A DNA stretch of 64,000 nt, from positions 64,001 to 128,000 of IMG/VR virus record IMGVR_UViG_3300031251_000002; one strand, 5' to 3'. Under the pieces are notes generated by a model. The model was not told where the DNA came from. It saw nothing but the letters and a program-made list of their open reading frames with translations, and did no database searches. A program made the translations under genes and the position numbers. Positions 11,340 to 27,023 of the stretch are shown here, one piece after another (positions within the stretch are counted from its first letter, which is position 1; every line of letters begins with the position of its first letter). This stretch comes from a virus.

Positions 11340-11376
11340 GGGGCGGCGGTAGATAGTCCGCCGCCCCTTTTCTTTT
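11340..11376 (+). terminator. Intrinsic terminator after the capsid gene
   Basis: GGGGCGGCGG/CCGCCGCCCC stem followed by TTTTCTTTT. Confidence 0.85.
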
Positions 11377-11386
11377 AGGGGGCGCT

Positions 11387-12131: not shown

Positions 12132-14267
12132 ATGGCACGACTAGCAGTAGACATCCCTATCGGTTCGCTGGCAACCTACGTCTATCCGGGCGGATATGAC
12201 TCCACCAAGCTCGGCCTTGGCCCGCTCATGCGGCAGGACTCATCCGGGTTCGTTGGGCCGTATACGACAGTTGTTGGCCATCCGGTTGAGCAGACGACAA
12301 ACGTTCCGTCCTTCATGCCGTGGGCCATGCAGTGGTCCAGCACGATTGACTGGATCTTTCTTGCGGATCAGGCTGCGGCTGGAACGACCCGTCGAATCAA
12401 CTACTACACCTACAACCGGTCTACTGGTGTCCTGAACTGGGCTGGCTGCATCATCACTACTCCGCCTTCAGGAACCAACCACACGATCCGTGCGCTTCGT
12501 ATGACCTACGACCTCCATACGGTCGGAACGGTTGCTGTCACTGGAACTACAGTGACTGGGACTTCAACCAAGTTCTCAACGGATCGTGCGTGTGTCGGTA
12601 ACCGCATTGGCTTTGGCAGCACGGATCCTACGCAGATTGTTACTTGGTACGAAATCTCTGCCATCGGTAGCGACAGTTCGATCACCCTGACGACCTCGGC
12701 TGGGACCATCGGATCCGGCTCCACATACGTGATCGAGGATCTTCGCGCAGTTACCCTGAACACGGCTGCGACTACGACAAACGGCGGCATGTTCGTGACC
12801 AAGGGCCTACGGCCCGAGATTTTCATTCAGACGACTGGAACCACCGTTGCCGCCGCTACGACGGTTGATAATGCCCGCTTTACGTACTGGCTTGCGGATG
12901 CTTCTACTGTTACCAATATCACCGGATTCGGTCTGGCGTTGCCGCCTGTTGTGGACAAGCAGACACAGTATGCGTACGCGCTCGATACGGTCGCCAACCC
13001 CGTCTGCTTCAAGTACAACCTTCGCGCTGCCCTGTCCTTGACCGCCGGTAAGGACACAACGTCTCTTGTGTTCAAGACTGGCTCGGGTGGTGCGCTTTCT
13101 GGTACAGCGTCACAGGTTAACAATGCTCGCTATGCCTCGACCAACCATGGTCCGGGGAACGGTTTGAACTGTATCTACTTCACGACGACAACCAAGATTT
13201 ATCGAACCAACGATGTTTCGACGTTCTCAGCCGCCTCTACGACATGGGTGGCCGACTCGGCTTCGGAGATTCCGCCGGGTGGCGTGAATACGTTTGCCGC
13301 TTCGTCGCTGATGAACTGCATCGAGTATTCATCGTTGATTGACCGTTTCGTTATTGCGGTCAACGCGACAACAACTCCGTTTCGCTCCTACCTAACCCAG
13401 TACCGCACCGATGCTGGCCAGTTTGATCAGGCGTTCGGGCTTGATAACCGCCAGATCGACCAAACGACCGTTGACTCCACCACGACCCCGGTTCCTACAT
13501 TGACGGGTGGCCCGTATACGATTTGGGAGACGGCTGGACTGTGTTACTTGGCGGGCATCGGTACGACTGCAATCACCAACCGCCTGTACGTTGTTCCGTT
13601 GCTGGCGGACTGGGAGTACGCTTCGGTCTCTAACTGTCGCGTGGTCTTTCCGGCCATCTCGACGCCGAATGCCAACAAGTACGTTCGTGCGTACGCTTGC
13701 ACAGACGAGATCATTGGAACTGGAACCTCTGGACACAATTTGGGGTTGCCGACTGAAGCGTATCGGATGTACTACCGAACCTCAGGCATCTCTGACAACT
13801 CTGGCTCTTGGACGCTGCTTGGAGATTCACATGATCTGACAGGCGTTGCTGGGGCGTCACAGATTCAGTTGATGGCTGAGTTCCGCATGCTCGGACCCAT
13901 CATGATTCCGGCCCGTCTTCTTGTGGTCGGGGTTGTCTATGACGACCTGACGACAGATTCCCACTACCAGCCTTCTGCCACGCTTTCCTCTGCTTCGACC
14001 AAGAAGTTCGCATGGCGCTTCTCGACTGCGTTTGGAACCACGGTTCCAGCCTTGCGAGTTCGGTTGATAGATGCGGTCTCGGGTGGCGTGTACGTAGACG
14101 ATAACACGGGCGCTCCGACTGGAACCTTTGAGGCGTCTACGAACGGCGGCTCTACGTGGTCGGCGTGGACGAATGCCGACAAGGGCAACGATACGACGTA
14201 CCTCCGGTACACCCCGGCTTCGCTTGGGGACAACCTGACCATTCGTGCGTTGTTGACGCTGAACTAA
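12132..14267 (+). CDS. Large Thr/Ser-rich beta protein, putative fibre tip or receptor-binding component
   Basis: 711 aa from ATG 12132; contains a GTVAVTGTTVTGTSTKF fibre-type motif. Confidence 0.55.
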   Translation: MARLAVDIPIGSLATYVYPGGYDSTKLGLGPLMRQDSSGFVGPYTTVVGHPVEQTTNVPSFMPWAMQWSSTIDWIFLADQAAAGTTRRINYYTYNRSTGVLNWAGCIITTPPSGTNHTIRALRMTYDLHTVGTVAVTGTTVTGTSTKFSTDRACVGNRIGFGSTDPTQIVTWYEISAIGSDSSITLTTSAGTIGSGSTYVIEDLRAVTLNTAATTTNGGMFVTKGLRPEIFIQTTGTTVAAATTVDNARFTYWLADASTVTNITGFGLALPPVVDKQTQYAYALDTVANPVCFKYNLRAALSLTAGKDTTSLVFKTGSGGALSGTASQVNNARYASTNHGPGNGLNCIYFTTTTKIYRTNDVSTFSAASTTWVADSASEIPPGGVNTFAASSLMNCIEYSSLIDRFVIAVNATTTPFRSYLTQYRTDAGQFDQAFGLDNRQIDQTTVDSTTTPVPTLTGGPYTIWETAGLCYLAGIGTTAITNRLYVVPLLADWEYASVSNCRVVFPAISTPNANKYVRAYACTDEIIGTGTSGHNLGLPTEAYRMYYRTSGISDNSGSWTLLGDSHDLTGVAGASQIQLMAEFRMLGPIMIPARLLVVGVVYDDLTTDSHYQPSATLSSASTKKFAWRFSTAFGTTVPALRVRLIDAVSGGVYVDDNTGAPTGTFEASTNGGSTWSAWTNADKGNDTTYLRYTPASLGDNLTIRALLTLN

Positions 14268-14440
14268 TGGCCTTGACTGACATCGTTTTTGGCGAGGGCG
14301 ACGAGGCGGGGTTTCTGGTGCAGACCGGAACGGGAAGCTATTCAGGCACCCTGACTGACGCCGTAACGAACGAGACGATGACTACTAAGGTTCCTCTTAG
14401 CGGAGGAGCGCCCTCAGGCTCCGTCATTCAGGTGTCGTAA
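14267..14440 (+). CDS. Small hypothetical protein (57 aa)
   Basis: TAATG coupling at both ends; MALTDIVFGEG... Confidence 0.55.
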   Translation: MALTDIVFGEGDEAGFLVQTGTGSYSGTLTDAVTNETMTTKVPLSGGAPSGSVIQVS

Positions 14441-14961
14441 TGGCCGTTCGGCGCTCCACCCCACTGATCGTGAGCTTCGCAGCGATTGACAGTTCCCTGC
14501 GCCCTGCGCGTAAGACGGGGATTACCTTCTCATCCGGGGACAGCAAGATTTCCAAGGATGGGGGTTCGTTCGCCAACACCGGGAATCTGCCTGCTGAGAT
14601 TGGTTCGACGGGGAGGTATTCGCTTTCTCTGTCGGCGGCGGAAGCAAACGCGGCATGGGTCCATGTCTCGGTTGAGCATACGGGCATGGATCCCGTGGAC
14701 ATCACCATCGGTACGAACGCTGATCCGTCTGGCTCAGTAGTTTCCAACGGGGGTAACACTGCCTCGACCTTCAAAACAGATCGCTCTGAAGCGACGACTG
14801 ACTTTTGGAAGGATGCCCTCCTACTCTTCACTTCTGGCTCCTTGGCAGGGCAGGTCAAGAAAGTCTCGGCCTTTGACGGGACTACCAAGTTCGTCACTCT
14901 GTCTTCAGCCTTCACAGCGGCTCCATCAGCCGCTGACCTGTTTGTGTTGATCAACGCATGA
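14440..14961 (+). CDS. Putative fibre cap/adaptor protein, paralog of 24554..25342
   Basis: SKDGGSFANTGN..EIGSTGRYSLSLSAAEAN motif shared with 24554. Confidence 0.6.
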   Translation: MAVRRSTPLIVSFAAIDSSLRPARKTGITFSSGDSKISKDGGSFANTGNLPAEIGSTGRYSLSLSAAEANAAWVHVSVEHTGMDPVDITIGTNADPSGSVVSNGGNTASTFKTDRSEATTDFWKDALLLFTSGSLAGQVKKVSAFDGTTKFVTLSSAFTAAPSAADLFVLINA

Positions 14962-15878
14962 GCTTCATCCTTTTCGATAGCTTCCAGACTGGGACGACCT
15001 ACGACATGTCGCTGGACATGGGGGCTGTTACTTCCGGCTTCTCTAACGCCGAGAACCTCAGTGCGGTTGGTAGCCTTGGGCTAGCTGCCGCTTCCGGTCT
15101 CACGGAGATCAGCGATCTCACGGCTGTCAGTGCCCTTTCGCTTTCTGCCATCCCGGCTATCTCGGAGACGGGCCTGCTGCTCCTGTTCCCGATCCTAGGG
15201 TTGCCTGCGACCTCGGACTTCGGGGAGTCTTCCTCCCTCCTGACTGCCGGTTCGACTAACTTATCGGCCACGACGGGCATGGGCCAGAGTGGTGGCCTTA
15301 TCGCTCTGGGGGCCTTGAGCCTTGGCGTGTCGGCAGCGTTGGCCGATAGCGGTGGACTGCTGCTAGAGGGCACCCTATCGCTCCCTGCCTCGTCTGCGCT
15401 TTCTCAGACTCAGACAGCGGCTTTGGGCGCTGCCGTAGCGTTCTCGGGCGCTTCTGGGCTGGCTGAAGCCTCTACATTGGCCGCTATTTCGTCCCTGAGC
15501 CTCCCTGCGGCCTCCGGGCTGCTTGGAGGGGGCCTTCTGGCCGCTGTTGCCTCTTTGCCCCTCTCAGCGGCTTCTGGCCTGTCCGAGACGGGCGGGTTGG
15601 CGTTCTCGGCTACGCTGGAACTAGACGCCACCTCGGCCTTTAACAGCTTGCCGGGATTGGCCTTCGATGTCGCTACGCAGCTTTCCGTAGCTGCCGATAC
15701 GGTAGTAATCAATGTGGTTAATTTTTCAAGCATTTTGACCCTAACGGGTATCTCGGGTTGGATTATTGATAGTGAGGTTTCAGGCGCAGCGCCGCCCTCT
15801 GCAACTTACAAGCTTCCGCTGTCCATGGTGTTGGATGCCCCGGCCCCATTTCAAGCGGTGATTCGTAGAACGAAATAA
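14958..15878 (+). CDS. 20-aa-period repeat protein (13 repeats), putative fibre ruler
   Basis: LxLxAxxxL units recurring every 20 residues. Confidence 0.65.
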   Translation: MSFILFDSFQTGTTYDMSLDMGAVTSGFSNAENLSAVGSLGLAAASGLTEISDLTAVSALSLSAIPAISETGLLLLFPILGLPATSDFGESSSLLTAGSTNLSATTGMGQSGGLIALGALSLGVSAALADSGGLLLEGTLSLPASSALSQTQTAALGAAVAFSGASGLAEASTLAAISSLSLPAASGLLGGGLLAAVASLPLSAASGLSETGGLAFSATLELDATSAFNSLPGLAFDVATQLSVAADTVVINVVNFSSILTLTGISGWIIDSEVSGAAPPSATYKLPLSMVLDAPAPFQAVIRRTK

Positions 15879-15886
15879 GGAGATTT

Positions 15887-16453
15887 ATGGATTTCACGCA
15901 TAAGAGCAAGAGCGACATGGGACAGGCAGCGGGGCTGGAAGCGGGTGCGTCTTCCTCTCTCGGGGCTTCTCCTCACACACACTACAAGGTTGAGTGCTTC
16001 GCTCCAGACGGTTCACTTCGTTGGGTTGAGGACTTCGACAACATCGTAGTCACGGCTGGCAAGAACATCCTCCTAGACTCGACTATCAAGACGGGTGTTA
16101 CCTCACCAACATGGTATGTCGGTCTGAAGGATACGGGCACCGTGTCTGCCGCTGACACCATGGCCTCGCACTCGGGCTGGGCTGAGCTTGGCGCTTCGAC
16201 ACCAACGTACTCAAACGCCACGCGCCCTGCCTTCACACCGGGTTCGATTTCAGCCGGTTCGGTTGACAACTCGGGAGCCAAGGCTGTGTTCAACATCAAT
16301 GCGACCCGGACTGTCTACGGGTGCTTCCTAGCGAACAACAGCACGGTTGATGGAACGACAGGCACGTTGTACGGAGCGGGCGATTTTGCCTCCTCCCGTT
16401 CGGTTATTTCGGGCGATACACTAAATGTCACAGTTACTTTGACAATCACTTAA
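15887..16453 (+). CDS. Putative major fibre subunit
   Basis: Strong AAGGAG SD; followed by a terminator; NIVVTAGKN.LL..WYVGL..GDTLNVTVTLT. Confidence 0.6.
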   Translation: MDFTHKSKSDMGQAAGLEAGASSSLGASPHTHYKVECFAPDGSLRWVEDFDNIVVTAGKNILLDSTIKTGVTSPTWYVGLKDTGTVSAADTMASHSGWAELGASTPTYSNATRPAFTPGSISAGSVDNSGAKAVFNINATRTVYGCFLANNSTVDGTTGTLYGAGDFASSRSVISGDTLNVTVTLTIT

Positions 16454-16478
16454 ATCGCCAGACAGATTGTGAGTTCAT

Positions 16479-16513
16479 GCTGCTGGCGTCCCGTTTGGAC
16501 GCCAGCGGTTTTT
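16479..16513 (+). terminator. Intrinsic terminator
   Basis: CTGCTGGCGTCC/GGACGCCAGCGG stem plus TTTTT. Confidence 0.8.
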
Positions 16514-16532
16514 AGACTGAAGGACTTCGCTG

Positions 16533-17495
16533 ATGGCGGTTAGTTATTTCATTGCCCCGCCGGGGGTTTCTTTTGGTGACTCCACCTTAGGAAACACCGC
16601 TGGTGACACGGGGACAGTCGGGGGCCGACTCGTCCTTGCCGGTGGCAATAACATAACCCTGAGCGGCTCGTCCTCGGGCGCGTCACTAACCCTGACGATT
16701 TCGGGGCCGAACGGCGGGGGTGCAGGTGTTTCGACACTTGGCAACACGCTAGGCGCGACCGGAACTGTCGGTGGCCAGCTAGTCTTTGCTGGTGGTAGCA
16801 ACATCACGCTGAGCCAGTCTACGAATGGCAACTCAGCAACCATCACAATCCTAGGGGTCAACCCTTCGGCTGGCACTCAGACAGCCGGTATCTCCAACCT
16901 AGGTAACACGCTTGGCACCTCCGGTGTCATCACCGGTTCGGCCATTGAACTAGTCTTTGCGGGTGGTAACAACATTACGTTGAGCCAGAGTCTCAACGGT
17001 AGCTCGGCCACGATCACAGTTATCGGTCCGACTATCGCCTCATCTTTGACAGCAATCAACCTTTCGGCAGGTACGACAAGTAACAACCTATCTGCCTTCG
17101 TTCTGAGTAACTCAAACAACATCAGTTTTGGTCTCAACGGGTCAACGATCACAGCGATAGTAACCGTTGCCTCCAGTCTGACGGCGATCAATGTTTCGGC
17201 AGGTACGACCAGTAACAATCTCTCGGCTCTCAGTTTCAACAACGCTAACGGGGTCACCTTTGGACTCAATGCCTCGACAATCACCGCTTCGGTCGCTGCT
17301 CAGTCAAACCAGACTCTCGGCATGTATGCCATTGGGACTACGGCAGGGGCGGCGTCATCAACAACTATGGATGCGCGTAGCATCTCGTTCTCTGCATTTG
17401 GACCAATGAGTTTAGGCTTTTCAGCATCGTCGGTTTTGTTGTCGCTTGATGGCGCACTGTATAGCCCGATGCATGCATTTTTAGGAGGCATCTAA
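16533..17495 (+). CDS. Ser/Thr/Asn/Gly-rich repeat fibre protein 1
   Basis: LVFAGGNNITLS and SAGTTSNNLSA repeats; ends HAFLGGI. Confidence 0.7.
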   Translation: MAVSYFIAPPGVSFGDSTLGNTAGDTGTVGGRLVLAGGNNITLSGSSSGASLTLTISGPNGGGAGVSTLGNTLGATGTVGGQLVFAGGSNITLSQSTNGNSATITILGVNPSAGTQTAGISNLGNTLGTSGVITGSAIELVFAGGNNITLSQSLNGSSATITVIGPTIASSLTAINLSAGTTSNNLSAFVLSNSNNISFGLNGSTITAIVTVASSLTAINVSAGTTSNNLSALSFNNANGVTFGLNASTITASVAAQSNQTLGMYAIGTTAGAASSTTMDARSISFSAFGPMSLGFSASSVLLSLDGALYSPMHAFLGGI

Positions 17496-17920
17496 TGCCG
17501 TTCACGCAGAACATCAACCCCACGTTTCCCAAGCAGCCACAGAACGGGAAGATCCAGATCCTCAACGGAACTGGAACAGCGAACGTCACGGTCTACACCG
17601 CTGGCGCGAGCGGCACCAAGGTGGTTGCGATCCTAGTCTCCAGTACGGACACCTCGCCCCGCGATGTCCAGATCAAGGTTACCAACGGCGGCACCGACTA
17701 CGTTTTGGGCACCAAGACCATTCCCGCCAACTCGGGAACTGCTGCCGGAACTGCCGCAGTGAACCTTCTTGACCCGAACGTAATCGTCGGTCTTCCGCTA
17801 GATAGTGACGGCAACCCGTTCATCTATCTGATCTCAGGGGACACCTTGACCGCTGCCGCGCTGACTACAGTGACTTCGGCTAAGGCAATCAACATCAACG
17901 CGGTTGTGGCTGACTTCTAA
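17495..17920 (+). CDS. Small fibre adaptor protein A, paralog of 19972..20394
   Basis: YTAGASGTKV..STDTS.R..GGTDY..GT..IP..G..YL.SG shared with 19972. Confidence 0.65.
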   Translation: MPFTQNINPTFPKQPQNGKIQILNGTGTANVTVYTAGASGTKVVAILVSSTDTSPRDVQIKVTNGGTDYVLGTKTIPANSGTAAGTAAVNLLDPNVIVGLPLDSDGNPFIYLISGDTLTAAALTTVTSAKAININAVVADF

Positions 17921-17941
17921 AGTCTAGATAGAGAGTTAAAA

Positions 17942-19963
17942 ATGGCTGATTTCCCTCTTCCGGGCCAACGCCCGACAACCCCTGCGATTCGGTCCATCGC
18001 AGTCAGCGGAAACACGCTCGGAACCACCATTTCTGTCCTTCACCGTTTCTTGCCGATTAACGCAACGGGACAGATTAGCGCGGGATTCAGCAACGGTTCG
18101 CTGTTGCTGTCCGTCCCGTCAATGGGAGTTTCAGCCGGTACAACCTCCGCATCGCTAGCGGCAGTCACGTTTGCTAACGGTAATGGTGTCAGCTTCGGGC
18201 TGAATGGATCCACCGTTACCGCAAGCATTGCGACCTCGCTGACCAACTTCAACATCTCCGCCGGTACAACTTCTAACAACCTATCGGCGTTGACGTTCGC
18301 CAACGGTAACAACGTCTCCTTCGGTCTGAACAACTCGACGCTCACCGCATCGGTTGCAACGTCGCTGACCAACATCAATTTCTCGGCAGGTACGACCTCG
18401 GCTAACCTGTCAGCGCTAACGTTCTCCAACTCTAACGGCATCAGCTTCGGACTGAACGCGGGTACGGTTACCGCTTCGGTTAACGCCATTGCAAACATCA
18501 ACGTCAGCGCCGGTACGACCTCCAACAACCTGACGCAGATTACTTTCAGCAACGCGAACAACGTCAGCTTCGGTCTCAACGCCTCGACCCTCACGGCTTC
18601 TATCGCTACCTCGCTGACCGCGATCAACCTGTCAGCCGGTACGACTTCCAACAACCTATCGGCGTTCACGCTCTCCAACAGCAACGGCCTGAGCTTCGGC
18701 TTGAACGGGTCTACCATTACCGGTAGCTACACCGTCCCGGTTGTGTCCAACGCTATTCAAAGCGTTTCTAGCGCGACCAACTCAGGAACTGGAGTTTCTC
18801 AGTTCGCTGCTCATGACCACGTTCACGCTGGAGTCGGCCCGGAAGGTGTTTCGACACTTGGCAACACGCTAGGAAATACCGGCGTGTTGATGGGTCGAGT
18901 TGTCTGGGCCGGTGGCAACAACATCACCCTGTCCGTCTCCTCGTCTAACAACAACGCTCAGACCATCACGATCATTGGTCCGACCATCGCTTCCTCGCTG
19001 ACCAACATCAACCTCTCAGCAGGAACAACCTCCAACAACCTCTCGGCGTTCACCCTGAGCAACTCCAACGGAGTCTCGTTCGGCTTGAACGGCAGCACGG
19101 TTACCGCTTCTATCGCTACCTCACTGACAGCCATCAACCTGTCGGCTGGTACGACGAGTAACAACCTGTCAGCGTTCACCATGAGCAACGCTAACAACGT
19201 TTCGTTCGGGCTGAACGGTTCGGTCATCACAGCTACTGCAACGGTTGCGACCAGCTTGACCAACATCAACTTCTCGGCTGGCACGACCTCCAACAACCTG
19301 TCAGCGATCACGTTCAGCAACTCCAACGGAGTGTCGTTCGGACTGAACGCCAGCACCGTGACGGCTTCTATTGCTACCTCGCTCACGGCGATCAACCTCT
19401 CGGCAGGTACAACCTCTAACAACCTGTCTGCGTTCACCATGAGCAACGCTAACAACGTGAGCTTCGGGTTGAACGGGTCAGTGATTACAGCTAGCGCGAC
19501 CGTAGCTTCGTCACTGACGGCGGTTAACATCTCGGCAGGTACGACTAGTAACAACCTGTCAGCGTTCACGTTCAGCAACGCCAACAACGTCAGCTTTGGA
19601 TTGAACGCTTCTACGATTACTGCATCAATCGCTACCAGCCTGACAGCCATCAACATCTCGGCAGGAACAACCTCAGGTAACCTGAGCGCCTTCACGTTCA
19701 GCAACGCAAACAGCATCACCTTTGGTTTGAATGCCTCTACGATCACGGCCAGCTTCTCGCAGTCAGTTCAGACGCAGGGGTTTGTCAACAGCATTTCCGT
19801 CCTTGGAAACACGGCTGGAACCGTCTCGGCTGGAACCGGTTTCTTGGCTCTGGCAGGTGGCAATAACATTACACTTTCAGGGTCTACGGCTGCTGGCAGC
19901 ATGACTCTTTCGATAGTTGGTAATGAGATTCAGTTCAATTACGCCTTCCTCGGCGGCGTGTAA
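17942..19963 (+). CDS. Repeat fibre protein 2 with 11 copies of a ~42-aa repeat
   Basis: Unit NxSAGTTSNNLSAxTxSNxNxVSFGLNxSTxTAS; HDHVH motif; ends YAFLGGV. Confidence 0.75.
   Translation: MADFPLPGQRPTTPAIRSIAVSGNTLGTTISVLHRFLPINATGQISAGFSNGSLLLSVPSMGVSAGTTSASLAAVTFANGNGVSFGLNGSTVTASIATSLTNFNISAGTTSNNLSALTFANGNNVSFGLNNSTLTASVATSLTNINFSAGTTSANLSALTFSNSNGISFGLNAGTVTASVNAIANINVSAGTTSNNLTQITFSNANNVSFGLNASTLTASIATSLTAINLSAGTTSNNLSAFTLSNSNGLSFGLNGSTITGSYTVPVVSNAIQSVSSATNSGTGVSQFAAHDHVHAGVGPEGVSTLGNTLGNTGVLMGRVVWAGGNNITLSVSSSNNNAQTITIIGPTIASSLTNINLSAGTTSNNLSAFTLSNSNGVSFGLNGSTVTASIATSLTAINLSAGTTSNNLSAFTMSNANNVSFGLNGSVITATATVATSLTNINFSAGTTSNNLSAITFSNSNGVSFGLNASTVTASIATSLTAINLSAGTTSNNLSAFTMSNANNVSFGLNGSVITASATVASSLTAVNISAGTTSNNLSAFTFSNANNVSFGLNASTITASIATSLTAINISAGTTSGNLSAFTFSNANSITFGLNASTITASFSQSVQTQGFVNSISVLGNTAGTVSAGTGFLALAGGNNITLSGSTAAGSMTLSIVGNEIQFNYAFLGGV
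18121..19752 (+). repeat. Coding tandem repeats of ~126 nt in two blocks (5 + 6)
   Basis: Degenerate DNA copies encoding the AGTTS repeat; boundaries approximate. Confidence 0.75.
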
Positions 19964-19971
19964 GGTAATGT

Positions 19972-20394: not shown

Positions 20395-22526
20395 TGTTTG
20401 GTGAGAATGATCCAAAGGCCCGAGGCCAAGTAGACAGCATCTCTCTGGCGGGGAATACCGCCGGTAATACGAGTGCTGGCACAGGACCGCTGGTTCTAGC
20501 CGGTGGTAACAACATTACTCTGTCCGCGCAGACCGCCATTCAGGGCGGTATGTCGGTTACTGTCTCCGGGCCTACCGTCATCCTTGACGCGCAGGGCATC
20601 AGCACGGGCGGCAATACGGCTGGTCAGACCGGCCTTGTCAGCCAGCAGCTTGTCTTTGTCGGCGGCAACAACATCACCCTGTCCGGTAGCGTTAACGCTC
20701 AGTCGGCAACGATTACCATCTCTGCCGGTGGCGGTGGTGCGGTTAATATCAGCGCTGGAACGACAAGTAACAACTTAAACGCACTCACGTTCGCGGATAG
20801 CAATGGTTTGAGTTGGGGCCTGAACGCTTCAACGATAACCGTTAGCTACACCGTCCCCCCGGTAAACACTGCCAACACCGCGATCCAATCAGTTCAGGGT
20901 TTCGTTTCCGCTGGAACTATGACGAGCTATGCTCGGGCGGATCATGCTCATGCTGGTGTTGCTAAACTATTTTTTGGATCAAACACGAAATCTGGTGGTG
21001 GACCGCTAACGATTACGGGCGATCCGTACGTTTCGTTGTCGTTTGATACGGCTGTTAATCAGGTTACGATTGACTGGCTTGGTCAACAGGCCACTACAGT
21101 ATCGGCTGTTACGTCCGCAAACGTGCTTGGAACTGCATCCAGTTCGTTTGCTATGCAGGACCATCAACACGCAGGTGTTGGCCTTGCTGGCGTGTCCAAC
21201 ATCGGAAACACTCTGGGTAACACGGCTGTCCTCCCCGGTCAGGTTGTCTTTGCTGGTGGTAACAACATCACACTTTCGATGTCCACCAGCGCCAACAACA
21301 ACATGACGATCACCATCTCTGCTGCGAACGGCGGCGGGGCAGGGTACACGGCTGGAATGTCCACGCAAGGAAACACAGCCGGTAACACTGGCATGGTGAC
21401 TGGACAACTTCAGCTTGTAGGATCGAACAACCTGACGCTCTCTGGATCAACGAACGCCGGATCCATGACGATCACCATTTCCGGTCCGTCGGCTGGGGGC
21501 ATGGGCGTTTCGACGCTCGGCAACTCGGCTGGAACGACGGGCACCGTTGGTGGCCAGATGGTCATGGTGGCTTCAGGCGGAGTCACCCTATCTCAGTCCA
21601 CGAACGGAAACTCGGGAACGATCACAATCACTGTTACCCCGAACGCCACGGCCTCATGGTTTGAGCCAGAAATCTATGGCGGTACGACGACAGGAACACA
21701 GGCTAACGGAACTGTCTATGTTCGACCGTTCTATGTTAACAACTACATATCGGCATATCGCGGTCAGATGCTGATGCAGATGACCAGCCAGAGCAACACG
21801 ACGATGAGCTTCTCCGGATCTGTTTCTGGAGGAAATGCCTCGTCGGCATCTGGATCGTGGGGTCTAAGCGGATCACTTTATGTCATGTCCCGAATCAGCA
21901 CCGGCACGGACGCCCATAGCTCTTTGATTGGTACTTTCTTTTCTCAGACCTACACCATGAGCATGGGTATGTCTAACTCGGTTAGCTGGTCTACCAACGC
22001 CTCCTCCGCTTCAGTTTCATGGACGACGGGCGGCAAGATTGGTTTCCTAAGCTCGATTGACTCAGCGGGTGGCGTTACTTACGGCAACTCAAGCACCACT
22101 TCATCGAACAGCTTTTCAAGCACCAGCACGAACGCTCACAGCTTCAGTTCGTCGGCTACTGTCAGCTTTGCATCCCAGCACCTCAGCCAGATCCGACCAA
22201 TTTTCTTCCCGATGGGCACAGCCCTTACTCCGGGCGAGTATTGGTTGGCCCACATTCAATCGACAAACACTGGTAGCACTAACCAAGGGTTGCAACAGCA
22301 GTGTCAGATGAACTCGGTTGGCTTGGTTTACTACACGACGCAGATTGGAACCCAGTATCAGGAAGTCGGCAACTCCGTGACCATCGCATCGAGCAACCTC
22401 ATGTGGGGGCTTGGCTCCTATAGTTCGTCAGGTAACTTGACGGCTGTTAGTGGAATTCCAATCTCACAGATTTCAAACATGAGCGGTTATTCGCTGTTCT
22501 TCCAGTTGCTCGCACAGGTGAAGTAA
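20394..22526 (+). CDS. Repeat fibre protein 3 with a distinct C-terminal head domain
   Basis: AGGNNITLS repeats; DHAH and DHQH motifs; C-terminal LTPGEYWLA domain. Confidence 0.7.
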   Translation: MFGENDPKARGQVDSISLAGNTAGNTSAGTGPLVLAGGNNITLSAQTAIQGGMSVTVSGPTVILDAQGISTGGNTAGQTGLVSQQLVFVGGNNITLSGSVNAQSATITISAGGGGAVNISAGTTSNNLNALTFADSNGLSWGLNASTITVSYTVPPVNTANTAIQSVQGFVSAGTMTSYARADHAHAGVAKLFFGSNTKSGGGPLTITGDPYVSLSFDTAVNQVTIDWLGQQATTVSAVTSANVLGTASSSFAMQDHQHAGVGLAGVSNIGNTLGNTAVLPGQVVFAGGNNITLSMSTSANNNMTITISAANGGGAGYTAGMSTQGNTAGNTGMVTGQLQLVGSNNLTLSGSTNAGSMTITISGPSAGGMGVSTLGNSAGTTGTVGGQMVMVASGGVTLSQSTNGNSGTITITVTPNATASWFEPEIYGGTTTGTQANGTVYVRPFYVNNYISAYRGQMLMQMTSQSNTTMSFSGSVSGGNASSASGSWGLSGSLYVMSRISTGTDAHSSLIGTFFSQTYTMSMGMSNSVSWSTNASSASVSWTTGGKIGFLSSIDSAGGVTYGNSSTTSSNSFSSTSTNAHSFSSSATVSFASQHLSQIRPIFFPMGTALTPGEYWLAHIQSTNTGSTNQGLQQQCQMNSVGLVYYTTQIGTQYQEVGNSVTIASSNLMWGLGSYSSSGNLTAVSGIPISQISNMSGYSLFFQLLAQVK

Positions 22527-23200
22527 TGAGCGTCCAGATTAAAACTAATCTTGGCGGGCTTGGCTATCCCGCTGCTCTTGCTAACTACACTCCAATGAGC
22601 TTTTCCCTTTGGGTCCGCTTCATCACGTTCAATGGGACTTCGCAGCCCATGTTCGACATGGAAGACGCCGTGGACTCGCAGTTCAGCGCCTATATGGGCA
22701 ATGGGACCGCCGGTCCTCACCTGATGGACATGTCTACACGGGAAGCCGGGACAGATTTTCTCTTTGGCCCAAACGTTGCTCTCGGAGATTGGCATTGCTA
22801 TCAAGGAGCAGTCAACGATGCCTCTGATGGCGGTGTTTACGGGTATATCGACAGCGCCCAGTTTTTCAACACGTACACACCTATTGCGGTTAGCGGAACA
22901 GTTAACATCAACGCTGTTGGTGCCTACGGTAGCGGAGCTTCGTGGTGCAATGCCTACGTCTCACAATGTCGAGTCTGGACGGCTAAGTTGACATGGGAAG
23001 AGTTGGCTATTGAGCGCACCTCAGCAACGCATGTTAAAACAGCTAACTTATATGCCTCATGGCCGTTGTTAACGAACTTGCTTGACACTTCTGGGAACGG
23101 ACGGTCCTTGGTTCCAACTGGCACCATCTCGACAGACTACGCATTTGACTCGTCAACAGAGCCGCCTTTGTTTCCGCGCAGTCTTTGGTTGACACGGTAA
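22526..23200 (+). CDS. LamG/ConA-like lectin-domain protein
   Basis: SFSLWV, GDWHCY, YID, SQCRVWTAKLT.EE, DTSGNGRSL. Confidence 0.7.
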   Translation: MSVQIKTNLGGLGYPAALANYTPMSFSLWVRFITFNGTSQPMFDMEDAVDSQFSAYMGNGTAGPHLMDMSTREAGTDFLFGPNVALGDWHCYQGAVNDASDGGVYGYIDSAQFFNTYTPIAVSGTVNINAVGAYGSGASWCNAYVSQCRVWTAKLTWEELAIERTSATHVKTANLYASWPLLTNLLDTSGNGRSLVPTGTISTDYAFDSSTEPPLFPRSLWLTR

Positions 23201-23236
23201 GTAACGGCTTTTAAAATCACAAGTTAGAGGGTAACA

Positions 23237-23968
23237 ATGAGTAAAGCGGGCAAGCTAACACAAGAAGCCATTGGGTTTCACAACGCCAATATCGCAGCCG
23301 CTCAGACGCGGTTGGTTCAGGGCAGCAGCTACAAAGACGTATCCACGATCTGTGTTGTGCCAACGCGGGGGATGATCTCCGCCAAGGTGGTCCAATACTG
23401 GATGGGGATGATGAGTCCGATGAACCAGAAGTTCATGCGGATTTTCATGAGCGGGCTAGAGGTGGGCGAGGCGTACGAACAGGCAGTGGATCAGATCCTC
23501 GCGCACCCAGACCTGTCGAAGTGGAAGTACATCCTAACGCTTGAGGAGGACAACTGTCCGCCTCCGGACGGGCTGCTTAAGCTAATCGAGTCCATTGAGA
23601 TGCACAAGCTCGATGCGGTTGGTGGCCTTTACTGGACAAAAGGCGAGGGCGGTCAGCCGATGATCTACGGCAACCCCGGTGAGATGCCAAGAAACTTCAT
23701 CCCGCAGGTTCCGATTCAGAACGCGGTTCAGCCGTGTAACGGTCTTGGAATGGGGTTCACGCTCTTCCGGATGGACATGTTCAAGTCCGGCAAGATCGCT
23801 CGTCCATTCTTCAAGACCGTGCAGGAGTACAAGCCCTACGTCGGCGGTTCGACGTTCACTCAGGACTTGTTCTTTTTCAACAAGGCGTGTGATCAAGGGT
23901 TCAAGTTCGCTTCAGACAATCGAGTTCTCGTTGGGCACTATGATGCCCCTAATGATTTCATGTGGTGA
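23237..23968 (+). CDS. GT-A fold glycosyltransferase (GT2-like)
   Basis: ICVVPTRG, YILTLEEDN (DxD position), VGGLY, GMGFTLF, TQDLFF, VGHYD. Confidence 0.8.
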   Translation: MSKAGKLTQEAIGFHNANIAAAQTRLVQGSSYKDVSTICVVPTRGMISAKVVQYWMGMMSPMNQKFMRIFMSGLEVGEAYEQAVDQILAHPDLSKWKYILTLEEDNCPPPDGLLKLIESIEMHKLDAVGGLYWTKGEGGQPMIYGNPGEMPRNFIPQVPIQNAVQPCNGLGMGFTLFRMDMFKSGKIARPFFKTVQEYKPYVGGSTFTQDLFFFNKACDQGFKFASDNRVLVGHYDAPNDFMW

Positions 23969-23984
23969 GTAACAAGGAGTGTAT

Positions 23985-24557
23985 GTGGCTAAAAGTAAAG
24001 CAAAGCTAAAAGCGGTCTCCTCGGTAGTCGAAGCTGAACCCCTGAAGATCGACCTCGGCTGCGGGCAAAACAAGAAGCCCGGATTCACGGGGATTGATAT
24101 CGCTGCGGCTCCGGGCGTGGACATCGTTCACGACCTGATGGTGATGCCGTGGCCGTTTAAGAACGACTCGGTTGGCGAGGTCTTCTCGTCCCACACGATT
24201 GAGCATTTCACCGGCCCCCAGCGCGTCAAGTTCATGGAAGAGCTTTGGCGGGTGATGCAGGTGGGCGCAAACGCGACGTTCGTCTTCCCGTACTACAGTT
24301 CTTCACGGGCAATTCAGGATCCGTTTCACGCATGGCCCCCGTTGTGCGAAGCCTCCTTCCTGTACTTCAACAAGGGCTGGATGATCGCCAACAAGCTAGA
24401 CCACTACAACATCAAGTGTGACTTCGACTTCACCTACGGTTACGCCTTCAGCGGCCAGTTAGTAAATCGCCCTCAGGAGATGCGGGACTTTGCTATTCGC
24501 AACTACATCAATGCGGTTGATGACCTCCATGTAACACTTACTAAGAGGGCCGGATGA
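23985..24557 (+). CDS. Class I SAM-dependent methyltransferase
   Basis: KIDLGCG, GID, HDL..PWPF, SHTIEH, RVM, QDPFH; AAGGAG SD before GTG 23985. Confidence 0.85.
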   Translation: MAKSKAKLKAVSSVVEAEPLKIDLGCGQNKKPGFTGIDIAAAPGVDIVHDLMVMPWPFKNDSVGEVFSSHTIEHFTGPQRVKFMEELWRVMQVGANATFVFPYYSSSRAIQDPFHAWPPLCEASFLYFNKGWMIANKLDHYNIKCDFDFTYGYAFSGQLVNRPQEMRDFAIRNYINAVDDLHVTLTKRAG

Positions 24558-25342
24558 GTGATTACCCACCACTAAAGAATGCTGCGTACACAGCCCGCTT
24601 CCCGCTCTTCAACGCCCTCGGTTTCCTGACCGGGGCAAGCGGGTTTGTGTCCAACGTACAGCAAGATGGTGGGTCATTCGCTGCGACGACCAACACGGTT
24701 ACTGAGGATGCGGACGGCTTCTATCACCTAGCCCTGACCAGCGGTGAGATGAACGGGGACCAGATTCAGGTGGTCATTACGGCCACTGGAGCGTCCCCTG
24801 TGGCGATTGAGATCCACACGGTTGTCCGTCAGACCAAGGATCTCCTGTTCCCCAACACCTCGGGCCGTGGTCTCAACGTGGACGCGGCTGGCGAGGCCGA
24901 TGCGAACGTGGCCAAGTGGCTGACGGTTACGCCAAACGGTCTCCAGTCAGGTCGCGTGGACAGCTACACAGGAGCCATGGCGGCTGGGGTAATCACGGCC
25001 AGTGTTGTGGACACGACGCTCGATGTCTACACGGCTATCGTCACATTGACCCTAGACAGCACCAACACCAAGGACCGCTACCTTGTCGAGTTCTACAAGA
25101 ACGCGGTTCCGTGCGCCCATGGCGATGTCACTTCGCCAACGATTACGGTCTTCACGGAAGCCAGCGGCTCGATGCTCATCAACGCCGCTACGTTGACTGA
25201 AGTCAGCACGACCGGGTATTACTCGTACGATGAGGGCACGAATCGAATCACCAGAGGTTTGGGTTACTACGCCAAGACAAGTGCGACGATTGGCTCAGGA
25301 ACCCGTACGTGGGTAACGTCCGTGGTAACACGCGACGTATAA
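24554..25342 (+). CDS. Putative fibre cap/adaptor protein, paralog of 14440..14961
   Basis: QQDGGSFAATTNTVTE..GFYHLALTSGEMN. Confidence 0.6.
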   Translation: MSDYPPLKNAAYTARFPLFNALGFLTGASGFVSNVQQDGGSFAATTNTVTEDADGFYHLALTSGEMNGDQIQVVITATGASPVAIEIHTVVRQTKDLLFPNTSGRGLNVDAAGEADANVAKWLTVTPNGLQSGRVDSYTGAMAAGVITASVVDTTLDVYTAIVTLTLDSTNTKDRYLVEFYKNAVPCAHGDVTSPTITVFTEASGSMLINAATLTEVSTTGYYSYDEGTNRITRGLGYYAKTSATIGSGTRTWVTSVVTRDV

Positions 25343-25354
25343 GGGTATGCTGCT

Positions 25355-26674
25355 ATGCCCCTCCTTTTCCCACGCCGGATCTGGCCCGGTTTCTTCGACC
25401 AGCCATCCGCTTCGTTCGGCAATTTCTACTTCAACAGCCTAACCCTGTCCGCAATAGCCGGGTTTGCCGATACCGGTCTGTTGTCTGCTATCGGCTCGCT
25501 GAACCTCTCAGCAACCCCAGACTTCGTTCCAACTGACACCGCCTTCATGGTGGGGTCAGTTACCCTGTCTGGAGCGAGCGGCTTCTCAGTTACCGGGGAT
25601 CGTGGCATCTTCACCAACCTATCGCTTTCAGCGACAGGGGACATCGCGCTGGCCTCCAAGCTCGATGCGGTTGGAAACCTGACGATCACTGGTTCTTCTG
25701 CCCTCACGACAACGGATACGCTGGATGCTCTCGCGTCCTTACTGATCACAACCGGTACGGCGTTTTTCGATCCGACCTTTGGTAACAACTCGACTGGAAC
25801 GCTAGACTTTACCTGCGGTGCAACCATGAGCGTGGTTGGGCAGGTAGTCGCTTTCAACTCGTTGACCCTAGCGGCCTCGCCTACGTTCAACACATCGGCC
25901 CTGCTGACTGCGCTAGCGAATCTTTCGTTGTCTGCCCTGTCTGGCTTCTCAGACTCGGCGCAGTTGGTAACCTCAGGTGCGCTCACCCTTTCTGGCTCTG
26001 CGGCGTTCAGCGGTACAGGCAATTTCGTAGCGACTCTGACGCTGAACCTTTCCGCGATACCGGGTTTCTCAGAGAGCGTCACCAACGCGGCTGCTGGCAA
26101 CCTGTCCTTAACCGTTACTGGGAACATCTCTGATCTGGCACTCCTGAACGCGGTGGGCAGCGCCAACCTAGCCGTCGTGGCCGGTATCCCAGTAGTCGGC
26201 AACGCCGACCTTCACGTTCTGTTCGACTTGAACAGTAGCGTTGGCCTCTTCCCGTTGGGTGGGCTGAACATTGATACCAGCCTCTCCCTCAGCGCGGCTC
26301 CGACCTTCTTTGGCAGCATCACAAACACGTTTGACGCCTCACTCTCGCTGGATGCAGTAGCGAGCGACTTCAACGCAGCGGTGTTCGTGGGCAACGCGGC
26401 CACCCTGTCCTTGCCTGCTGGAGCCACGGTCAGCCCGATCACGCAGGCTGATCTCGTTGGCCATATCAACCTGACAACGACTGCGCTGTGGTTCGCTGAG
26501 ATCGCTTTCTTCATCGCCCCGGTTTACACCGTTCCGTTCTATCTGGCGCTACTCACCTCGACACCGACAGAGCTTGAGGTTGTCCGAGTAACCCCTATCA
26601 GTGTTGCTTTGACGGTCGATACGCCAACCAACGTGGTTCTAGAATCCGATACACCCAAGACGTTAATTCATTGA
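25355..26674 (+). CDS. 20-aa-period repeat protein (18 repeats), putative second fibre ruler
   Basis: Same LxLSAxxxF 20-residue unit as 14958..15878 and a similar C-terminal motif. Confidence 0.65.
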   Translation: MPLLFPRRIWPGFFDQPSASFGNFYFNSLTLSAIAGFADTGLLSAIGSLNLSATPDFVPTDTAFMVGSVTLSGASGFSVTGDRGIFTNLSLSATGDIALASKLDAVGNLTITGSSALTTTDTLDALASLLITTGTAFFDPTFGNNSTGTLDFTCGATMSVVGQVVAFNSLTLAASPTFNTSALLTALANLSLSALSGFSDSAQLVTSGALTLSGSAAFSGTGNFVATLTLNLSAIPGFSESVTNAAAGNLSLTVTGNISDLALLNAVGSANLAVVAGIPVVGNADLHVLFDLNSSVGLFPLGGLNIDTSLSLSAAPTFFGSITNTFDASLSLDAVASDFNAAVFVGNAATLSLPAGATVSPITQADLVGHINLTTTALWFAEIAFFIAPVYTVPFYLALLTSTPTELEVVRVTPISVALTVDTPTNVVLESDTPKTLIH

Positions 26675-26681
26675 GGTTTAA

Positions 26682-27023
26682 ATGCTGAACCCTTTCACAC
26701 TTGTAGAAGATGATCTGCTGCCGTCGCTTGTTGCCTTTCTTCGCAACGCGGATGGGTCGCCCATGGACCTCACCAGCACGAACGTGAAGTTCTGTATGAG
26801 TACCCAAGACCTGTCCGATGTTCGGATTGACCATGCCCCCTGCACGGTAGTGGATGCCGTGAACGGGAAGGTGCAATACGACTGGGTAGAGCCAAACACC
26901 GCTACCCCCGGCACCTTCGCTGCCCAATTTAAGGTGATCGTAACAACCCTTGCAGGCGACAAGGTAATGACGGTTCCGACCGAGGAGCCGCTGCTGATCG
27001 TTATCGTCCCGAGGCAGGCATGA
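26682..27023 (+). CDS. BppU-N-like Ig-fold adaptor protein
   Basis: DDLLPSL...DGSPMDLT..V.F.M..VDAVNGKVQYDW...T.TPG.F.AQF..TVP. Confidence 0.7.
   Translation: MLNPFTLVEDDLLPSLVAFLRNADGSPMDLTSTNVKFCMSTQDLSDVRIDHAPCTVVDAVNGKVQYDWVEPNTATPGTFAAQFKVIVTTLAGDKVMTVPTEEPLLIVIVPRQA

Follow-up and report, generated by a model that had tools for sequence, protein, structure and literature searches.

Gene content and limits of the cassette

The DNA analysed, a window of 64,000 nucleotides, belongs to an uncultivated myophage of 166 kb whose capsid protein is of the T4 type. Between the adaptor gene at 11387-12130 and position 27020 it carries 16 genes (named here by their first position), all on the + strand, with inter-gene gaps of no more than about 80 nt and with several overlapping stop and start codons. 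An earlier note on this DNA had described fifteen co-oriented, tightly packed genes between gp13- and gp14-like flanks; the orientation and packing held, whereas the number did not, and only the first of the two flanks could be upheld. The upstream limit, the 247-aa product of 11387, was identified as a gp13-like head-tail adaptor (neck) protein by PHROG 211 'head-tail adaptor Ad2' (E 3e-11) and by tblastn matches (E 4e-4) to proteins of T4-like phages that are annotated as 'neck protein', with no match to Pfam Phage_T4_gp13; a strong terminator-like hairpin (11340-11367) separates its gene from that of the capsid protein. The downstream limit, a 170-aa protein (27020-27532) previously called gp14-like, gave no match in Pfam, PHROG or phage tblastn searches and belongs to no assigned family. 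Further neck genes follow at 28348-29723, a Neck1/tail-completion-like gene at 28348-28881 (PHROG 222, E 8e-8) and a gp15-like gene at 28878-29723 (Pfam T4-gp15_tss, E 4e-8, over its cut-off). Immediately before the downstream limit, the 113-aa product of 26682-27023, whose stop overlaps the 27020 start, contains an Ig-type BppU_N-like domain (Pfam BppU_N, E 1e-8, over its cut-off), in agreement with the BppU-N-like assignment proposed before.

Comparison of the cassette genes by blastp revealed four sets of paralogues: 14440 and 24554 (E 2e-7, 41% identity, 58 aa), 14958 and 25355 (E 9e-9, 32% identity, 192 aa), 17495 and 19972 (E 3e-20, 40% identity, 128 aa), and the mutually paralogous 16533, 17942 and 20394 (E 1e-23 to 1e-45). 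The duplicated layout noticed earlier was confirmed by these sets, the pairs formed by a 'cap' gene and a periodic 'rope' gene being duplicated as units.

Rope-type genes accompany bead genes across phages

Both rope proteins show a 20-residue period far beyond chance: rope 1 (14958-15878, 306 aa) contains 12 units in exact register over residues 21-260, and rope 2 (25355-26674, 439 aa) about 15-17 units from residue 28 to approximately 367, of which 15 were scored, with space for 16-17. The lag-20 autocorrelation, compared with shuffled sequence, gave z values of 11.4 for 14958 and 8.6 for 25355.

The gene at 15887-16453, single-copy in the genome and provided with an AAGGAG ribosome-binding site, encodes a 188-aa fibre subunit of the Gp80 family, hereafter the bead (PHROG 8123, E 3e-27). 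This protein matched the 171-residue chain of PDB 26la_U/44nx over about 140 residues (phmmer E 6.6e-12, profile E 3.4e-18). In the published account of 44NX, the chain of 171 aa is gp41 of A1002 (PMC13730344). Judged by its sequence, the bead is a homologue of this solved fibre-II bead of Pseudomonas phage A1002. Relatives of the bead match Pfam PF23140 Gp80 ('Podophage GP4 fiber I protein gp80'), and the window's own protein gave no match to Pfam Gp80 at E 1 or better.

The synteny survey suggested in the earlier note was carried out on IMG/VR loci (L numbers below) and showed that rope-type genes accompany beads in most of them. A co-oriented ORF with a period of about 20 residues was found within 6 kb of the bead homologue in 56 of 80 loci, mostly immediately beside the bead gene, compared to 2 of 29 control loci fetched with a jelly-roll query (59 of 604 against 2 of 337 when counted by ORF). 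Fisher's test gave p values of about 2e-9 for loci and 9e-10 for ORFs, which are somewhat overstated because the 80 bead loci include some near-identical pairs. Direct blastp relatives of the two ropes were present in 9 bead loci, those of 14958 adjoining bead genes in L057, L058, L075 and L079 and those of 25355 in 8 loci, and bead and rope were also paired in Vibrio phage VS-ABTNL-3 and in L004, L005, L017, L043, L074 and L122.

A rope with repeated docking sites that carries dimers of the Gp80 family is a solved architecture (PMC13730344, PMC12609058), and both 20-residue-repeat proteins fit the 'rope' of GP4, A1002, Bas63 and Sf14, although a search for sequence similarity to any solved chain detected none. 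The fibre-dock domain of A1002 (residues 243-468, 3-32 and 96-107; about 268 aa) accommodates 11 dimers (PMC13730344), which by arithmetic corresponds to about 20-24 residues per dimer. Complex modelling, also suggested earlier, was run on two beads plus residues 141-200 of rope 1 and lent weak support to the pairing, with a score of 0.41 compared to 0.00 for the best of three controls; at least 85% of the contacts were shared between the runs, and the pLDDT of the partner was about 45 (at least 45). Neither a rope nor its complex with the bead yielded a confident structure. Of the solved complexes used for calibration, 58 of 80 passed the mark, as did 2 of 110 mismatched pairs, and passing scores of 0.60 or less came from 7 of the 80 solved complexes and from both passing mismatches. 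As similar complexes have already been solved, the pass may reflect likeness only.

According to the mechanism proposed, the bead would form dimers that thread onto the two ropes, and their incomplete beta-sandwiches would be completed by strands of the extended rope polypeptide, as in the solved examples. We infer that each 20-residue unit docks one bead dimer, so the number of repeats, 12 in 14958 and about 15-17 in 25355, would set the length of the fibre; at the A1002 spacing, lengths of roughly 30 nm and 45 nm would be expected. A single bead gene would serve both ropes, which fits with its strong ribosome-binding site. The ruler and small subunit postulated in the earlier note agree with the solved architecture, the bead homology and the gene linkage, and its two programmed lengths, which follow from the unequal repeat numbers, are plausible.

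It seems improbable that the 20-residue-repeat proteins fold by themselves, as beta-solenoids or other fibrous structures, or act as tape-measure-like rulers that carry no beads, with the proximity of a Gp80-like gene due to another cause. A four-sided pentapeptide-type solenoid would also give a 20-residue period, and the missing sequence match to solved ropes and the weak complex prediction point the same way; against this, the bead and the rope are linked in 56 of 80 loci versus 2 of 29 controls, the number of residues per dimer in A1002 agrees with the length of one repeat, and the solved ropes are extended strands without a fold of their own.

Anchor-domain proteins, a second fibre set and putative modifying enzymes

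The gene immediately ahead of each rope gene encodes a protein whose N-terminal domain is an Ig-like anchor. Cap 1 (14440-14961, 173 aa), whose stop overlaps the start of 14958, is paralogous to 24554 over residues 35-92, and cap 2 (24554-25342, 262 aa) consists of the anchor domain, a flexible linker and a C-terminal beta-sandwich (CBM/FnIII-like). The AlphaFold2 model of cap 2 (pLDDT 87) reached about 98 for residues 11-90, about 53-69 for 91-150 and about 93-98 for 160-250; it matched Ig/FnIII/CBM56-like folds (Z 10.1, rmsd 2.6, 85 aligned), and no phage collar was found among the matches listed, including that of GP4. In 2457 relatives of cap 2, the N- or the C-module is reused separately. 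L068 has a rope gene immediately behind a cap-like one. Most proteins with the cap N-domain have no rope in the vicinity, and a periodic gene came directly after the gene with that domain in only 5 of 67 loci. Apparent fusions of the cap N-domain to a rope were rejected, as their repeat was of an unrelated 10-residue type. Because this N-domain is widespread on fibre-like proteins of many lengths, the proteins described in the earlier note as caps are more likely anchors or short fibres, and the tip module proposed there for each appendage is conjectural. In the cassette, the probable role of the anchor-domain protein is to fix the rope to the virion or to terminate it.

The first gene of the cassette proper (12132-14267) encodes a conserved beta-rich protein of 711 aa with no assigned role. 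It has 981 homologues, the best 120 of which are 51-63% identical and nearly all 709-733 aa long; no sequence match was found in Pfam or the PDB, and Atlas gave weak beta-propeller-like leads. Its copy in phage contig L121 is 58% identical whereas the capsid proteins are only 23% identical, which indicates a mobile module. Behind the 711-aa homologue lies a rope gene in L074, L122, L144 and L151 and a cap-like gene in L121, L125, L131, L143, L155 and L163, but neither in most of 79 loci; the family is large, very conserved and usually found without bead or rope genes. The 711-aa protein may serve as a platform on which proteins with the cap N-domain dock. The next gene (14267-14440) encodes a 57-aa protein with a conserved N-terminus, MALTDIV. 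This motif also begins the gene that comes next after the 711-aa homologue in both L121 and L122; a relaxed version of the pattern was found after 10 of the 79 homologues.

Downstream of the bead gene lie three repeat fibres, all rich in Gly, Ser, Thr and Asn, with two jelly-roll partners, seemingly a fibre system in its own right. Repeat fibre A (16533-17495, 320 aa) is rich in Gly, Ser, Thr and Asn, ends in ...AFLGGI and has relatives in L007, L008 and L012. Repeat fibre B (17942-19963, 673 aa) ends in ...AFLGGV and is built of 42-residue repeats (TRF period 126 nt; lag-42 z 17), and repeat fibre C (20394-22526, 710 aa) is paralogous to the others in its N-terminal half, with a distinct Ser/Thr-rich C-terminal half that has no ...GG[ILV] tail. 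Jelly-roll protein 1 (17495-17920, 141 aa; AlphaFold2 pLDDT 92) had as best fold matches the cement protein of phage KHP40 (Z 9.7, rmsd 3.5, 109 aligned) and fibre knob-type domains; a Gp80-like assignment was ruled out by profile comparison. Its paralogue, jelly-roll protein 2 (19972-20394, 140 aa), matched profile A1 with an E of 8e-46. In many of 29 related loci the gene upstream of the jelly-roll homologue ends in ...GG[ILV], and jelly-roll 1 appears to be a partner of such a tail on the preceding fibre, as a connector or tip; in the cassette, the jelly-roll proteins would pair with the fibres ending in ...GG[I/V]. The LamG gene described earlier (22526-23200) was verified: its 224-aa product has a LamG/concanavalin-A-like lectin fold (Pfam Laminin_G_3, E 9e-7, over the cut-off). 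Elsewhere, LamG domains are found beside a cap homologue (L039) and as part of a fusion with a rope (L004).

Two putative enzymes follow. The methyltransferase recognized in the earlier note was supported: the 192-aa product of 23979-24557, assigned as a SAM-dependent enzyme, matched PHROG 6636 methyltransferase (E 6e-14) and, at 20.9 bits versus a cut-off of 21.2, Pfam Methyltransf_11. The glycosyltransferase call is weak: the 243-aa product of 23237-23968 is probably of GT-A type, with a feature score of 0.99 to a viral cluster so named in Atlas and a match to Pfam Glycos_transf_2 under the cut-off (E 0.019). Homologues of both enzymes occur in L007 and L012, those of 23237 being 44-46% identical and beside the same fibre type. 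With the LamG protein, both enzymes were assigned to the second fibre system, whose fibres they might modify.

A broader reading, that of the earlier note, in which both enzymes modify the repeat fibres by virion glycosylation and the whole block is one system of fibre assembly and decoration, remains tentative. The enzyme genes lie inside a late structural operon, their homologues were found exactly in loci with the 16533-type fibre (L007, L008 and L012) and in no other examined locus, and Ser, Thr and Asn are abundant in the fibres, 17942 having 5.9 N-x-S/T sites per 100 aa compared to a genome mean of 0.68. This excess is, however, mostly compositional (40 sites against 28 expected from composition), and the linkage is seen in no more than two independent loci, L007 and L008 being from a single phage. 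Apart from the doubtful E of 0.019 for the glycosyltransferase, a near-consensus sigma-70-type promoter directly upstream (11 of 12 matches, 23189-23217) would allow separate expression of the enzymes, for example to modify a surface polymer of the host. Glycosylation of the fibres may therefore be proposed with reserve.

Comparison with solved fibres and place on the virion

In T4, an accessory neck-fibre gene (wac, fibritin) lies beside gene 13, as the cassette adjoins a gp13-like gene, but fibritin is a single-gene trimeric coiled coil and nothing in the cassette is similar to it. A close likeness is to the Pseudomonas podophage A1002 (nozzle-rope gp39, fibre dimers gp40/gp41; PDB 44NX; PMC13730344), which shares a homologous bead (gp41), a long extended segment with serial docking at a spacing close to the 20-residue unit, and an Ig-like domain associated with the rope. 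In A1002, however, the rope is a domain of the nozzle protein in a podophage tail and there are two kinds of bead, whereas the cassette, from a myophage whose capsid is T4-type, has a single bead gene and two stand-alone ropes that are dissimilar in sequence to any solved chain. Fiber I of the Ralstonia podophage GP4 (gp80 dimers, Ig-like collar; PDB 8JOU; Zheng et al. 2023, cited through PMC13730344 and PMC12609058) has a separately encoded rope (PMC12609058) and an Ig-like partner protein, as here, and its bead falls in PF23140 as do relatives of the cassette bead; it has five dimers per rope, compared to the 12 and about 15-17 docking units predicted here.

In the Felixounavirus myophages Bas63 and Sf14, neck whiskers lie between the adaptor and the head-completion protein, which matches the position of the cassette genes; the whisker dimers of Bas63 wrap the rope of the collar 'like beads on a string', the rope completing their incomplete sandwiches (PMC12609058). 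The rope of Bas63 is nevertheless a short N-terminal extension of the collar with two dimers only, whereas those of the cassette are long, separate proteins of two sizes. By description only, the cassette can also be likened to the neck chain of the Anabaena myophage A-1(L) (gp82-gp81-gp80), with its many small globular units and distinct end piece, although each of these beads is a trimer and the chain is formed by head-to-tail contacts, with no rope (PMC10966104). The earlier note knew of no described system with the full combination; the core had in fact been described already in GP4, VP1 and A1002 (PMC13730344) and in Bas63/Sf14 (PMC12609058).

The best explanation of the core, to which we give a probability of about 70%, is that ropes 14958 and 25355 and bead 15887 form two chain-like (beads-on-a-string) fibres, presumably attached at the neck. 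The neck site is proposed by analogy, from the gene order, with the gp13-like adaptor gene on one side and the rest of the neck genes on the other, and from the Bas63 collar at the adaptor/head-completion interface (PMC12609058). Gene position does not fix the virion site, as the chain-like fibres of GP4, VP1 and A1002 sit on the tail (PMC13730344) and the bead and rope genes of the myovirus contig L043 lie between tube and baseplate-hub genes. It is thus conceivable, if less likely, that the same rope-and-bead fibres sit on the tail, the baseplate or the capsid, and that their place among the neck genes is an accident of insertion; this alternative concerns location only, and the confidences overlap. 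In its favour are the anchoring of the rope on the tail adaptor or nozzle in the solved podophages, the arrangement in L043, the position of the module after capsid or terminase genes in other loci and a mobile 711-aa partner that is 58% identical where the capsids are 23%. The solved myophage case, Bas63/Sf14, has its collar and whiskers at the neck, though, and the genes studied here sit precisely in the interval from the adaptor gene to the remaining neck genes. The downstream baseplate module has large fibre candidates of its own, such as a 1632-aa protein (55019-59917).

The beads-on-a-string fibre is a virion appendage that has been solved only recently, and in few phages. The block analysed here most likely encodes two such fibres of different set lengths, and most likely carries in addition another group of repeat fibres, along with two enzymes of putative modifying function. 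Its rope-and-bead core is of an already known kind, and it differs from the solved cases in having two long stand-alone ropes with one bead gene.

Genome setting of the cassette

The virus record from which this DNA comes (IMG/VR, 166,450 bp, rated complete) carries within the window, all on the + strand, genes for a T4-type prohead protease and major capsid protein (Pfam Peptidase_S77 and Gp23) and for tail sheath, tube and T4-like baseplate wedge proteins. Its capsid protein is less than 40% identical to those of the closest cultivated phages, and megablast of the whole block 12132-27023 against 50,697 phage records gave no DNA match. The block is filled by sixteen + strand genes, from the adaptor gene (11387-12130) to the gene at 27020.

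The assignment of the adaptor as gp13-like was upheld by PHROG 211 Ad2 (E 3e-11) and by a tblastn match to an annotated 'neck protein'; the Pfam gp13 model did not match it, and nothing was found when the protein was used as query in a scan of viral contigs. The gp14-like label given in an earlier note to the gene at 27020 gained no support, with no match in Pfam, PHROG or phage tblastn. The gene at 28348 (+), Neck1/tail-completion-like by PHROG, is the first recognisable neck gene past the cassette and lies directly before the gp15-like gene at 28878 (+, Pfam T4-gp15_tss); it is at least as good a gp14 candidate as 27020. In a distant T4-like contig (L121), gp13, gp14 and gp15 stand side by side; hence, the genes between the adaptor and the remaining neck genes are a true insertion in this phage. 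The duplicated layout described for the block was also recovered, as paralogue sets consisting of the cap proteins 14440 and 24554, the 20-residue-repeat proteins 14958 and 25355, the 140-aa pair 17495 and 19972, and the repeat fibres 16533, 17942 and 20394.

Three other features of the surrounding region were recorded. A strong terminator-like hairpin (11340-11367, +; 10 G-C pairs followed by a T-run) separates the major capsid and gp13-like genes. An exonuclease-family gene (33577-34758, +; PHROG 284, E 2.5e-43) lies with the tail sheath gene on one side and the tail tube gene on the other, where a gene of DNA metabolism is unexpected. Finally, a 540-aa protein of the baseplate module (51887-53509, +) showed a weak local likeness to the phage's own major capsid protein (blastp E 4e-5 over 120 aa) and also matched 'tail protein' PHROG families.

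Bead protein and candidate ropes

The gene at 15887-16453 (+), with the ribosome-binding site AAGGAG, encodes a protein of 188 aa, here called the bead. It matched PDB 26la_U/44nx over residues 32-182, with an E value of 6.6e-12 by phmmer and of 3.4e-18 with the family profile. Entry 44NX contains fibre I gp40 and fibre II gp41 of the Pseudomonas podophage A1002 (PMC13730344), and the matched chain was read as gp41 because its 171 residues equal the length given for that protein (PMC13730344). The bead itself gave no match at E 1 or better to Pfam Gp80 (PF23140, 'Podophage GP4 fiber I protein gp80'); bead relatives do match this family, and two close ones, P0010 and P0052, scored 26.7 and 27.7 bits at a cut-off of 27. 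The Pfam model seems to lie at the edge of the subfamily of 15887.

In the solved structures of chain-like fibres, bead dimers bind serially to an extended 'rope' via beta-sheet augmentation (PMC13730344, PMC12609058). In A1002, 11 dimers sit on the fibre-dock domain of gp39, of about 268 residues (PMC13730344), and from the numbers of that paper 20-24 residues per dimer were worked out. The rope of GP4 is separately encoded, carries five dimers and is held by an Ig-like collar (PMC13730344, PMC12609058). In the myophage Bas63, the collar lies between the adaptor and the head-completion proteins, and its N-terminal rope bears two whisker dimers 'like beads on a string', completing their incomplete sandwiches (PMC12609058).

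The two candidate ropes of the cassette, rope 1 (14958) and rope 2 (25355), showed a 20-residue period with z scores of 11.4 and 8.6, respectively. The register was near-perfect, with 12 units in rope 1 and 15 scored units, and room for 16-17, in rope 2; each unit has two short stretches of alternating hydrophobic residues. With about 20 residues per predicted docking unit, both proteins are close to A1002 gp39 in the spacing of serial docking sites (about 20-24 residues per bead dimer). Rope 1 is adjacent to the bead gene and rope 2 is 9 kb away from it. In unit length, composition and position beside the bead gene, both repeat proteins fit the role of a rope. The likeness to A1002 and GP4 extends to the bead, a sequence homologue of the solved A1002 bead whose relatives share the Pfam family of GP4 gp80. 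The earlier note had proposed a ruler-plus-subunit system and knew of no described example of the full combination; the ruler-plus-subunit reading was correct, but systems of this type have recently been described in A1002, GP4 and Bas63.

No relevant match of the ropes to PDB sequences was obtained at E 10 or better, including the GP4 rope, A1002 gp39 and the N-terminus of the Bas63 collar; this weighs little, because rope segments are short, extended and fast-evolving. The prediction of a complex of two beads with three units of rope 1 scored 0.41, a weak support, compared to 0.00 for the best of three controls, and no interface was reported; contact agreement between runs was at least 85% and the pLDDT of the partner about 45. 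Of 80 solved complexes, 58 reached the mark used, as did 2 of 110 mismatched pairs, and those that did so with scores of 0.60 or lower were seven of the 80 solved complexes and both passing mismatches. As similar complexes have already been solved, a pass may show likeness only.

The pairing was then followed in 80 IMG/VR loci with a bead relative, in which all ORFs of at least 150 aa were scored for periodicity. A co-oriented ORF with a period of 19-21 (or 38-42) residues was present in 56 of the 80, compared to 2 of 29 control loci, which had been fetched with a jelly-roll query. Counted by ORF, the periodic ones were 59/604 in bead loci and 2/337 in controls (Fisher p ~1e-9, somewhat overstated because there are some near-identical pairs among the 80 loci). 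Most of those in bead loci lie directly before or after the bead gene, and for nine of these periodic neighbours blastp showed a direct relationship to 14958 or 25355. Bead and rope are also paired in Vibrio phage VS-ABTNL-3 and in L004, L005, L017, L043, L074 and L122.

A third 20-periodic ORF of the same genome (genome positions 49025-50215, +, ~15 kb before the window), encoding 396 aa with a signal-peptide-like N-terminus, was discarded as a rope on account of its collagen-like Gly-X-Y tract. Two architectures were observed in other phages. In L004, a 709-aa protein directly upstream of the bead gene (7879-10008) carries rope-type 20-residue repeats fused behind a LamG domain, unlike the window, where LamG is a separate gene (22526-23200). 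In L039, a 667-aa protein with 45-residue repeats (9395-11398), two genes past a cap homologue, ends in short T-x-P-(L/I)-x-V repeats similar to the C-terminal tail of rope 2 (26500-26674 in the window), and this tail may be an end piece common to both proteins.

Accompanying parts of the cassette

Both rope genes directly follow a cap gene (14440 and 24554), the cap and rope pair having been duplicated as a unit. The model of cap 2 (24554; pLDDT 87) consists of an N-terminal beta-sandwich (residues 11-90, pLDDT ~98), a poorly defined linker and a C-terminal beta-sandwich, both sandwiches having pLDDT values of 93-98. Searches with Foldseek and VIA-align returned generic Ig, FnIII and CBM56-type folds (Z up to 10.1, rmsd 2.6, 85 aligned); cap 2 is thus Ig-like, as are the collars of GP4 and Bas63, but no phage collar was present among the fold matches listed. 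Comparison of cap 2 with PDB sequences gave nothing useful, and Pfam found no informative domain in its long relatives.

Among the 2457 cap relatives from an exhaustive search, the N-module, the Ig-like N-terminal domain, stands at the start of proteins of 113 to >1000 residues, and the C-module at the end of others. In being used at the start of proteins of so many lengths, the N-module resembles a domain that attaches small fibres to the virion. L068 also has a cap-like gene ahead of its rope, but in the scan of viral contigs with the N-domain alone as query, a periodic gene next to it was infrequent (5/67 loci). Five '20-periodic' cap proteins, which could have been taken as cap domains fused to ropes, have an unrelated 10-residue Ala/Ile-rich repeat and were not counted as support. 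The caps may be rope anchors, rope ends or short fibres with a common dock. An antisense ORF of 176 aa (14424-14954, -) covers the cap 1 gene almost exactly; given the paralogue and homologues of the + strand gene, it probably represents a shadow ORF.

The 711-aa protein at the start of the block (12132-14267) belongs to a family for which 981 relatives were found; the best 120 of these are nearly all of 709-733 aa and 51-63% identical. Its conservation far exceeds that of the core virion genes, with 58% identity to its L121 copy compared to 23% for the capsid proteins of the same two phages. It had no Pfam match, neither alone nor as a profile did it match PDB sequences, and the structural leads, beta-propeller-like, were weak. 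The gene that follows, encoding here the 57-aa peptide (14267-14440), starts with MALTDIV in this phage, in L121 and in L122. The 711-aa homologue is followed by a rope gene in L074, L122, L144 and L151, and by a cap-like one in six loci. The protein was rejected as a regular component of the bead and rope module: none of 79 homologue loci had an A2-type bead and only six had a ~20-periodic ORF. Its link to bead and rope is occasional, not general, and the protein is thus mobile, strongly constrained and travelling with ropes only sometimes; that it is a docking platform for proteins with the cap N-domain is a guess. Its homologues are sometimes tandem paralogues (L134, L156, L157, L159 and L187, among loci L121, L122 and L123-L202).

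The second fibre system comprises the paralogous repeat proteins 16533, 17942 and 20394, rich in Gly, Ser, Thr and Asn. In 16533 and 17942 the C-terminus reads ...AFLGG[I/V], and in both cases a 140-aa protein (17495 and 19972) comes next. The model of 17495 is a jelly roll (pLDDT 92) with a phage cement trimer (Z 9.7, rmsd 3.5, 109 aligned) and fibre-knob-type domains as its nearest fold matches. The possibility that these jelly rolls were extra Gp80-type beads, with the repeat fibres as their ropes, was set aside as unlikely, as the profile-profile probability was 4% and the jelly rolls listed by the fold searches were of cement and knob type, with no GP4 or other bead entry among them. In many of the 29 jelly-roll-related loci (L010-L038), the upstream gene, of any length, ends in ...GG[I/L/V]; therefore, the jelly roll probably recognises that tail, either to connect it to the next fibre or to form a tip. 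From this pattern, docking through a C-terminal tail may be a rule in one class of phage fibres.

Homologues of the putative glycosyltransferase (23237-23968) and the methyltransferase (23979-24557) were found exactly in the loci with 16533-type fibres (L007, L008 and L012) and in no other locus examined, which hints at a functional tie between the two enzymes and the second fibre set, although the link comes from two independent loci only. The putative glycosyltransferase scored below the Pfam Glycos_transf_2 cut-off (E 0.019, 15.3 bits; cut-off 23.3) and had no match among PDB sequences; its look-alike cluster in the Atlas is named GT-A type, and a neighbouring cluster has PF00535 in 17% of its members. 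The methyltransferase matched PHROG 6636 (E 6e-14), fell just under the cut-off for Pfam Methyltransf_11 (20.9 bits; cut-off 21.2), and is read as a class I SAM-dependent methyltransferase. Fibre 17942 has 40 sequons compared to 28 expected, an excess that is largely compositional. Glycosylation of the second fibre set is a tentative proposal, rather doubtful on these data. A near-consensus sigma-70-type promoter (23189-23217, +; TTGACA, 17 nt, TAAAAT; 11/12 matches) sits in the 36 nt just ahead of the putative glycosyltransferase gene, within a late operon whose genes are otherwise tightly packed; the region overall shows no enrichment in promoter-like sites (3 found, 8.2 expected).

Proposed assembly and its significance

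The whole reading, in which the 20-residue repeat is a general length code, two neck fibres are built from one bead and the second fibre set is glycosylated and methylated, was given a probability of about 0.3. One repeat would correspond to one bead dimer and could be counted, so that two neck fibres of different set length, with 12 and ~17 sites, would be made from a single bead protein, on ropes that would exceed in length any stand-alone rope seen so far; the second fibre set would be modified by its own enzymes. Attachment at the neck has about even odds, and the anchoring partner of the ropes is one that we infer. On the gene content predicted here, the new elements are two long stand-alone ropes of unequal repeat number with a single bead gene, the placing of such a set within the neck gene region of a myophage whose capsid is of T4 type, and the accompanying parts.

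Chain-like fibres have so far been known from a handful of cryo-EM structures, all since 2023. This locus and the 80-locus survey suggest that the rope and bead pair is common in uncultivated phages, a rope candidate being recognisable from sequence by its 20-residue period in most of the bead-gene loci. The rope candidates of these loci are about 190 to 1050 residues long and, therefore, the length of a fibre may be adjustable. The 711-aa protein and the jelly-roll partners of ...GG[ILV] fibres are widespread virion parts worth a structure. If the second fibre set is glycosylated, phage fibre glycosylation would reach beyond mycobacteriophages. A phage with two ropes and one bead is a natural case in which to ask if length is set by repeat number, and if the length code is true, fibre length would be readable from sequence in hundreds of uncultivated phages.
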